DNA of 64,000 nt from a virus (IMGVR_UViG_2713896905_000004:31599-95598), one strand, 5' to 3'; shown: positions 49,011 to 49,996, counted from the first letter of the stretch. Program-made: numbers and translations. The notes: a model not told the origin generated them from the letters alone.

Positions 49011-49018
49011 GTATTGAT

Positions 49019-49828
49019 ATGCAAGAAGAGAAACAACACTACCTCTACGTTCTGGTGCCAGAGAACGGAGATACTTTTAAAATCGGCATTTCATGTGGTC
49101 CATTGGCACGGTTTAAAGGGCTACAAGTGAGTCCCGATTTTGCGCTTTCACGGGTCTATCGTGGTACACGTTTGGCAATGGTTAATCTTGAGCGGGCTTT
49201 ACACGCAACCTTTTTCCCCTGGAATGCGCCGTGGGAGAAAAGCGTCGGTGGCGGGCATACTGAATGGTTTACACGAGAGTGTCTTGATAAGGTTTTGGCT
49301 CATATCGAATATCTAAGTGATATGTGGGGAGGGATTCTCGAGCGCATTAAGTCGAATGATTTACTTCAGCGTCCAGTAGATGCTGCTTGCTCTTTCGAAA
49401 AAGAGCTGGATGTTACTTCTATCGTGACTTTCAAAGATGACGCAGGAATGAGGGACGTGGCTTATGTCTCCATATCTGGCTATGAACCGGACGCGATCCG
49501 CGCTCAATGTGAATTGCTGAAAGCAATGTTTATGCTTCGGACTAAATATCCCTGGGATACAGGGCGGGTGTGCTTCCCTATGGAAGAGTTAACCGCCACC
49601 ATTGATTCCCAGCTTTACCACGATAATCCAGAGAAGTTTTTTAGCCTTTTAGCCGGTAATGGGCTTAACTGTGTGTCCGGGCTGGGGCGAAGTAGAATCC
49701 AACATGCCTCGCTCTTCGGTCCCTTCTTTTACGATCGACACGGGTACTTTGAGGCTGAACTTCCGGCGCTTACGCGTGCTATAGATACTATCGATTTCGA
49801 ACGATTATTCGCTGCTCTTAGCAAATAA
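49019..49828 (+). CDS. T5orf172 / GIY-YIG-like domain protein
   Basis: N-terminal YLYVLVPENGDTFKIGIS...LARF...GGGHTEWF; about 170 aa of unrecognised C-terminus. Confidence 0.55.
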   Translation: MQEEKQHYLYVLVPENGDTFKIGISCGPLARFKGLQVSPDFALSRVYRGTRLAMVNLERALHATFFPWNAPWEKSVGGGHTEWFTRECLDKVLAHIEYLSDMWGGILERIKSNDLLQRPVDAACSFEKELDVTSIVTFKDDAGMRDVAYVSISGYEPDAIRAQCELLKAMFMLRTKYPWDTGRVCFPMEELTATIDSQLYHDNPEKFFSLLAGNGLNCVSGLGRSRIQHASLFGPFFYDRHGYFEAELPALTRAIDTIDFERLFAALSK

Positions 49829-49834
49829 CACTGA

Positions 49835-49855
49835 TGCCCCTGAACGGGGCTTTTT
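49835..49855 (+). terminator. rho-independent terminator
   Basis: gcccctgaacggggc followed by six T. Confidence 0.7.
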
Positions 49856-49996
49856 TGTGCCTTTCTTGTAACTCTCAATCGTGCAAAATGAACCAAACAT
49901 GCAGAGAATGCTATGTACAAGCATCTACGCATACATTATTATTTTATGCAGCATTTTTAATTAAATTCAAAAATACAGCATAAAGGATGACTTTCG

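Follow-up and report, generated by a model that had tools for sequence, protein, structure and literature searches.

The typing of P1-like phage-plasmids, which are widespread and carry resistance genes, among them mcr-1 and blaCTX-M, rests on two replicons, IncY and p0111, and we know of no explanation so far for the presence of unrelated replicon modules on near-identical phage backbones. The p0111 module has been described in RCS47, SJ46 and JL22, and in JL22 the place of IncY repA is taken by the p0111 'repA' and by gp57, an unknown gene (PMC9603915). Published descriptions of the module assign no function to the gene analysed here, and they report neither the related genes of other cassettes, nor that the gene is dispensable, nor the fold of its C-terminal domain.

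The gene encodes a protein of the T5orf172 type. Such proteins are documented as nucleases and homing endonucleases of phage ICP1, where they lie at boundaries of genetic exchange, and one of them, Odn (gp88), couples a nuclease to a RepA-like DNA-binding domain, cuts the origin iterons of a satellite and thereby selects for swapping of replicon modules (PMC8263062, PMC10448857). CapR is a domesticated repressor related to T5orf172 proteins (PMC8263062, PMC10448857), and a C-terminal domain of the zinc-finger/CapR/DUF723 type occurs in 87% of phage T5orf172 homing endonucleases (PMC10448857). Two aspects of the present locus are thus already known, namely the GIY-YIG/T5orf172 label of the gene (RefSeq carries it publicly as 'GIY-YIG nuclease family protein') and the p0111 replacement itself (PMC9603915). 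What is new is the conserved slot of the gene in four replicon cassettes, including a P1-type one, its position at the cassette edge and the contrast between its evolutionary rate and that of its neighbours, together with its dispensability, a deletion remnant and a predicted winged-helix, possibly Rep-like C-terminal domain.

The p0111-type replicon cassette and its breakpoints

The window, a viral stretch of 64,000 nucleotides (IMGVR_UViG_2713896905_000004:31599-95598), is a p0111-type (SJ46/RCS47-like) P1-like phage-plasmid, and its replicon cassette is the p0111 module of RCS47, SJ46 and JL22 (PMC9603915). Over positions 47500–52500 its identity is 99.4% to Salmonella phage SJ46 and 98.5–99.3% to JL22, RCS47 and further P1-like phage-plasmids, while P1 proper aligns within this interval solely from ~49895 on. 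In a blastn profile against P1, identity runs at 98–100% to ~47200, falls through 96, 87 and 80%, is lost at 47645, at the first iteron, and returns abruptly at 99–100% from 49895, 67 bp past the stop codon of the nuclease gene, making the right breakpoint sharp. The block between these points (47646–49894, + strand), comprising iterons, repA, a second array, the T5orf172 gene and a terminator, is therefore a replacement cassette that stands in place of P1 incC-repA-incA, and the nuclease gene is the last, right-hand gene of this swappable replication cassette. The initial annotation had the gene 'wedged' into the P1 incA–parA junction. Its position between an iteron array, ending at 48988, and parA, with Ppar from 49914, was correct, but the iterons are not those of P1 incA, having another core and another Rep; insertion into the P1 junction was excluded, since the whole replicon differs from that of P1.

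Upstream of the cassette lies upfA (47115–47507). The cassette opens with five direct iterons at 21–22 bp spacing (47661–47761, + strand), which were located by repeat search and pattern scan, occupy the position of P1 incC and have the core TTGACTATACGCGA, as against GATGTGTGCTGGAGGGA in P1. They are followed by repA (47842–48726, + strand), which encodes a Rep3/RepB-family (RepFIB-like, 'p0111') initiator of 294 aa with Pfam Rep3_C and Rep3_N matches, 41% identical to P1 RepA and ~47% identical to classical RepFIB. The true start of repA is the ATG at 47842 and not the TTG at 47785 of the mechanical ORF, because the Rep of a second locus, L002, aligns from the MPEE start and an 885-bp repA is annotated in six fetched p0111-type plasmids (L008–L013). 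An iteron-like copy, TTGACTATAAGCGA, with one mismatch to the core, lies within the repA coding sequence (48446–48459) and is kept at the matching site of L002 repA (7613–7626; repA 84% identical). The downstream array (48727–48988), in the position of P1 incA, consists of two direct copies (48727–48766) and four inverted ones (48846–48988), the last of which (48970–48988) ends ~30 bp before the T5orf172 ATG. This layout is repeated in L002 and also in L003, there with P1-type iterons, and in the three cassettes with mapped iterons (window, L002 and L003) the nuclease ATG is found 22–35 bp beyond the last inverted iteron.

An intrinsic terminator (49836–49856, + strand) closes the cassette, with a 5-bp GC stem and a 5-nt loop followed by T6 (GCCCC-TGAAC-GGGGC); the 41-nt fold has a dG of -11.9 kcal/mol (z=-3.0 against shuffles), and an equivalent hairpin with a T-run lies 3' of the nuclease gene of L005. 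The gene had been credited with its 'own strong terminator', and the hairpin is indeed canonical, but 'strong' is generous for a structure this short. No sigma-70-like promoter was found directly upstream of the nuclease gene, nor any promoter or terminator between repA and it, so that only co-transcription with repA can be suggested, and the region gave no Rfam match to a structured RNA. Beyond the cassette, the flanking P1-type par region (49895–52211, + strand), 99–100% identical to P1, contains Ppar (49914–49942), parA (49997–51193) and parB (51210–52211).

The graded left edge (47200–47645) spans the 3' end of upfA and the DnaA-box/GATC part of oriR. Taken with the sharp right edge, this gradation indicates that the host-factor half of oriR is common to IncY and p0111 and that the half specifying iterons and Rep is alone swapped. 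Two further patches of lower P1 identity (46000–46400 and 55000–56000; 88–92% and 90–94%), one within a upfB-like ORF and the other in the tail-sheath region, interrupt sequence of 98–100% identity and suggest small mosaic exchanges elsewhere in the backbone. The extent of the exchanged unit can be seen from L002 and L003, whose near-identical backbones (flanks 92% identical on the left, to the first iteron, and 98% on the right, from 63–84 bp past the nuclease stop) differ in their nuclease variants and have rep genes that are unrelated. As the flanks are alike and the interiors are not, the exchanged unit consists of iterons, rep, iterons and nuclease.

The T5orf172 gene and its predicted domains

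The nuclease gene (49019–49828, + strand) spans 810 bp including the stop codon and encodes 269 aa, its assignment resting on Pfam, PHROG, conserved residues and a structural model. In the HMM search that had been proposed with the initial annotation, T5orf172 (PF10544) matched residues 8–85 above its gathering score (26.9 bits against 20; E=6.9e-6), whilst MUG113 and Tox-URI2 stayed below threshold. PHROG 2876 (function unknown) covers the full length of the ORF, and phrog_681 'endonuclease' matches at E=1e-8. The 810-bp gene with a T5orf172 signature that had been read from the DNA was thus confirmed, with all three quoted motifs in place (YLYVL at residues 8–12, KIGIS at 21–25 and TEWF at 81–84).

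The N-terminal catalytic domain covers residues 1–105 (49019–49333, + strand). The features by which T5orf172 domains were recognised, a Tyr in strand 1, K-x-G in strand 2, an Arg in helix 1, an E..H helix and T-E-W/F-F with the catalytic Glu, are all present in the window protein. Nine residues (Y10, K21, G23, R31, E58, H62, G79, E82 and F84) are 93–100% conserved among 144 N-domain relatives, all nine occur in the window protein, and the same residues, R31 and E82 included, are invariant across four full-length variants that share only 25–44% identity. Retention of catalytic residues at such divergence indicates long-term selection for function. The GIY-YIG alpha/beta fold was recovered in the AlphaFold2 (AF2) model of this domain, and a BFVD structure search placed it as T5orf172-type with a probability of 1.0, its matches including annotated homing endonucleases and ICP1 ORF88, which we take to be gp88, that is, Odn. 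From the domain and its residues we infer that the gene encodes a GIY-YIG-type (T5orf172) nuclease. With the SLX1/URI-type GIY-YIG nucleases the window protein has the catalytic fold alone in common; SLX1 is eukaryotic and structure-specific, with a RING/PHD C-domain and the partner Slx4.

Structure prediction of the C-terminal domain, also proposed with the initial annotation, was carried out with AF2. A model built on an alignment of 4 sequences reached a pLDDT of 70.8 (mean pLDDT of five models 68–71), and an earlier one from 2 sequences (pLDDT 55) was set aside. It lays the protein out as an N-domain (1–105), a low-confidence linker (117–126) and a C-domain (residues 128–269; 49400–49825, + strand) in which helix 157–173, strand 183–187, helices 188–194 and 198–211 and strands 215–220 and 227–231 follow one another in the order of a winged helix, at moderate model confidence. 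ORC/Cdc6 and further winged-helix proteins were among the structural matches of this domain, all of them weak, and the same proteins ranked top in a Foldseek search of the PDB, without significance (best E 0.11; 6h24 E 0.19). On this model the C-domain is a probable winged-helix domain that probably binds DNA, and by its weak resemblance to the winged helices of initiators its fold is possibly Rep-like.

At the level of sequence, the C-terminal ~170 aa gave no match in Pfam, NCBIfam, PADLOC or PDB sequences, in agreement with the earlier reading of this part as unrecognised. A PDB sequence profile search with the C-domain returned nothing, as did Pfam at E<=10, and no Pfam Rep domain was detected in the C-domains of any of the four variants. 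Blastp of the C-domain against its own and other Reps, ParA and ParB found none (E>1 for the five Reps tested), and hhalign against Rep, at a probability of 0.2%, indicated no relation. Neither did Pfam reveal zinc-finger domains (CapR/DUF723/DUF4397); the CxxC motif is absent from the protein, and the only cysteines conserved between the window protein and the L002 variant are C26, C88 and C218. The window and L002 have an iteron core in common, yet their C-domains are down to 33% identity, and the specificity of the C-domain, if it binds DNA, is therefore not tied to the iterons of its own cassette.

A conserved slot, frequent decay and evolutionary rate

A word-indexed search of 5.8 billion proteins returned one full-length cluster and P0004 (44% identical), and an exhaustive HMM search of 1.84 billion (1.84e9) representative proteins gave 158 matches, among which only P0004, P0009 and P0011 (P0011 by pairwise alignment) were full-length relatives, the others matching in the N-domain only. 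All three full-length relatives are encoded between the rep-downstream iterons and parA of P1-like elements, in a shared backbone synteny of dmt, hrdC, a PAAR-motif gene and ppfA through to parA and parB and then the counterparts of P1 genes 23/22. The adjoining Reps differ: that of L002 is RepFIB-like and 84% identical to the window RepA, those of L003 and L004 are P1-type (83% identical to P1 RepA) and that of L005 is a third type, 41–48% identical to every other Rep compared. The grouping of the nuclease variants roughly mirrors that of the Rep types, with the window beside L002 in both, a weak test at four variants. Phylogenetic incongruence with flanking genes was not seen among these four, the nuclease moving with the rep cassette and not alone; this fits vertical descent within the cassette, with no sign in the sequences of independent homing into empty sites.

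In PLSDB, ~392 plasmids carry the cassette (RepA at >=99% identity in 394 records, the nuclease at >=80% coverage in 391). Tblastn against the same database, run to see whether classical RepFIB/IncF or other plasmids carry the gene as well, placed it only in ~400 P1-like plasmids, with one weak N-domain match in Cupriavidus. The P0009-type variant was not found in PLSDB or INPHARED, and a scan of GTDB species representatives added one further Escherichia locus only. A 168-aa cluster, P0003, was not accepted as a sign of N-terminal truncation, since its contig begins inside the gene. PLSDB's MOB-suite typing of the six fetched p0111-type plasmids as 'IncHI1B' looks like a mis-assignment arising from distant Rep similarity. 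A distant N-domain relative of 291 aa, P0013, is encoded in a chromosomal island (L006; GCA_041726985.1 CP168302.1, 805398–822273) where its neighbours are Mrr_cat/Zn-ribbon, WYL/WCX and Hypoth_Ymh genes; this setting resembles a defence island and differs from the P1 slot. Further N-domain relatives were found in a phage region with many HNH homing endonucleases and on a conjugative plasmid.

The gene is not carried by all P1-family replicons. Comparison of the incA–parA junction, as had been suggested with the initial annotation, revealed a presence/absence polymorphism at the same locus in close relatives: the gene is present in the p0111 type, L002, L003, L004 and L005 and absent from P1, P7, L062 and L063, and no relative of it was found in P1, P7 or IncY plasmids. 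The 213-bp incA–Ppar spacer of P1 holds no gene remnant detectable by blastn-short or tblastn, and no remnant of the ORF was found in the gene-less allele of L063. The Salmonella plasmid pCFSAN058588, with an L005-type Rep and flanks 89–91% identical, has undergone an internal deletion of ~890 bp and keeps the first 11 codons, ATG-AAC-CAG-ACA-AAC-GAT-CTC-TAT-TTG-TAT-AT (MNQTNDLYLYI), joined directly to the terminator tail. The sole resolvable empty allele, L062, is this deletion, with 11 ORF codons left, and not a virgin target. Given the same slot in three other cassettes and this Salmonella remnant, the gene looks like an old component of the cassette that has been repeatedly lost, P1 included, rather than a recent insertion.

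Decay was sampled in 50 p0111-type loci (6 plasmids picked for low identity, 43 IMG/VR contigs and 1 genome contig). The nuclease was intact in 38, with 9 nonsense alleles, 1 frameshift, 1 IS200/IS605-disrupted copy and 1 cut at a contig end, whereas repA was intact in 49/50 of the same loci. Broken copies thus make up ~20% of the sample and represent at least six independent events. The nonsense alleles fall at four codons (Q36*, W68*, S112* and Q228*), and the occurrence of S112* in six loci indicates that a truncated-nuclease lineage is circulating. Q228* is carried by L035 (IMG/VR; 103,445 bp, as the SJ46 record), and the six S112* loci are L013 and L040–L044. In L058 (IMGVR_UViG_2645727563_000002), an IS200/IS605-family element at 4295–6057 lies in the T5orf172 gene, replacing the equivalent of window 49313–49541; its TnpB-like (389 aa) and Y1 TnpA-like (141 aa) proteins were called by eye from their sequences.

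The ratio of nonsynonymous to synonymous variants per site was 0.34 for the nuclease gene (N-domain 0.42, C-domain 0.33), compared with 0.02 for repA, 0.01 for parA, 0.10 for parB and 0.20 for upfA. Together with the broken copies, this indicates a gene that is dispensable for plasmid maintenance and weakly constrained, though not neutral; it is unnecessary for replication or partition. Between the window and L002, identity is 44% for the nuclease (33% over residues 101–269), 84% for RepA and 89% for ParA, and by this measure the nuclease diverges far faster than its neighbours.

Candidate roles and consequences for P1-like elements

In its organisation the locus resembles free-standing homing endonucleases such as I-TevI, T4 Seg and those of the ICP1 type, which likewise have an N-terminal GIY-YIG-type domain, a linker and a C-terminal DNA-binding domain (here predicted) within ~270 aa, and which are likewise found intergenically between conserved genes, with presence/absence polymorphism, a sharp recombination boundary and frequent decay. 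It differs from the ICP1-type enzymes in a C-domain without CxxC motifs and without a Pfam match, and from homing endonucleases generally in that no homing into intact empty sites was seen and the phylogeny of the gene tracks the rep cassette. The reading we favour, at about even confidence, is a site-specific nuclease that moves along with its replicon cassette and is directed, as a selfish or competitive element, against related P1-like genomes, through homing-like conversion or exclusion. The initial annotation had offered a selfish nuclease insertion or defence cargo; the selfish nuclease survives as this reading, insertion has given way to a cassette swap, and defence found nothing in PADLOC.

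In such a scheme, in which an active nuclease, a DNA-binding C-domain, a target and an outcome in drive or competition are all inferred, T5orf172/GIY-YIG catalysis at the N-terminus would be combined with a fast-evolving, probably DNA-binding winged helix at the C-terminus, and the cassette of iterons, repA, iterons, nuclease and terminator would be exchanged as a unit among P1-like phage-plasmid backbones. If a cell came to contain two P1-like elements related to each other, whether through superinfection or because different replicon types reside together, the nuclease would cut the replicon or par-proximal region of the rival. Repair of the break from the nuclease-carrying element would then copy the nuclease and the linked rep module into the rival backbone, in a homing-like gene conversion, or alternatively the rival would be lost; with targets exhausted, the nuclease gene would decay. 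Possible, if doubtful, is the claim that each P1-family cassette has its own nuclease that recognises rivals via a Rep-like winged helix, cuts them and drives the replacement or exclusion of replicons.

An Odn-like weapon directed at replicons, which we consider unlikely, would overlap with the favoured reading and differ from it in target (origins and iterons) and in outcome (destruction, not conversion). A Rep-derived, WH1-like C-domain would bind the iterons of rivals, or Rep bound to them, and the T5orf172 domain would destroy the origin, candidate rivals being other P1-type cassettes, other plasmids and satellites; such pressure would itself select for the swapping of replicon cassettes among P1-like elements. 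Like Odn and the coliphage T5orf172/RepA_N nucleases related to it (Barth et al. 2021 eLife, PMC8263062; Barth et al. 2023, PMC10448857), the window protein pairs a T5orf172 catalytic domain with a separate, here predicted, DNA-binding domain, is borne by a mobile element and is tied to conflicts between replicon modules; the model of its C-domain bears a weak resemblance to initiator winged-helix domains. However, the domain order is reversed, with the nuclease N-terminal in the window protein, which lacks a RepA_N domain and shows no sequence match to any Rep, and its gene sits in a replicon cassette by its own iterons, whereas Odn is encoded by a lytic phage and targets a satellite.

The decay of the gene could also mean that it does little now in E. 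coli, and a relic, a once-active selfish nuclease that is inert today in the E. coli p0111 lineage and drifting to loss, would account for the disruption of about a fifth of sampled copies in at least six events, the Salmonella deletion remnant and a ratio far above those of the neighbours. We regard this as quite improbable, as that ratio (0.34) is still well below 1, ~76% of copies (38/50) are intact and the catalytic residues are invariant in four variants at 25–44% identity. Were the gene inert, it would be a plain decaying selfish gene for which the label 'GIY-YIG nuclease family protein' suffices.

Single-gene anti-phage defence cargo that restricts incoming unrelated phages, to the gain of the lysogen, appears very improbable. 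An accessory, fast-evolving and often-lost gene on a prophage-plasmid is what such cargo would look like, and P0013, distantly related through its N-domain, is encoded next to Mrr-like and WYL/WCX genes on a chromosomal island; but PADLOC-DB v2 yielded 0 families at E<=1 and NCBIfam none, the site is strictly fixed within the replicon cassette and not in the regions known to hold variable cargo in P1-like elements, and other N-domain relatives occur in the HNH-rich phage region and on the conjugative plasmid. A domesticated, non-cutting DNA-binding regulator near the iterons and Ppar, comparable to PLE CapR and tuning replication, copy number or par expression, would suit the fixed site a few tens of bp past the incA-like array and upstream of Ppar, the possible co-transcription with repA (no promoter or terminator having been found between them) and the existence of T5orf172-derived repressors (PMC10448857), but is highly improbable given that every catalytic-type residue is kept across deep divergence, that the gene is weakly constrained and frequently knocked out in persisting plasmids, and that P1, P7 and IncY plasmids manage without it.

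Overall, a nuclease that borders the swapped module on its sharp side, invariably abuts iterons and outpaces the divergence of Rep and Par is a testable candidate driver of replicon replacement in P1-like phage-plasmids, and the same gene is a candidate driver of competition between co-resident prophage-plasmids. If the doubtful claim that each cassette's nuclease recognises and cuts rival replicons were true, the diversity of IncY, p0111 and other replicons on otherwise near-identical P1-like backbones would be the product of a nuclease-driven arms race among replicon modules, and plasmids would have their own equivalent of the ICP1 Odn–PLE conflict, in which the replicon itself encodes the weapon. 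Confirmation of a driver role would carry over to plasmid replicons the idea, so far drawn from lytic phages, that nucleases delimit genetic exchange.
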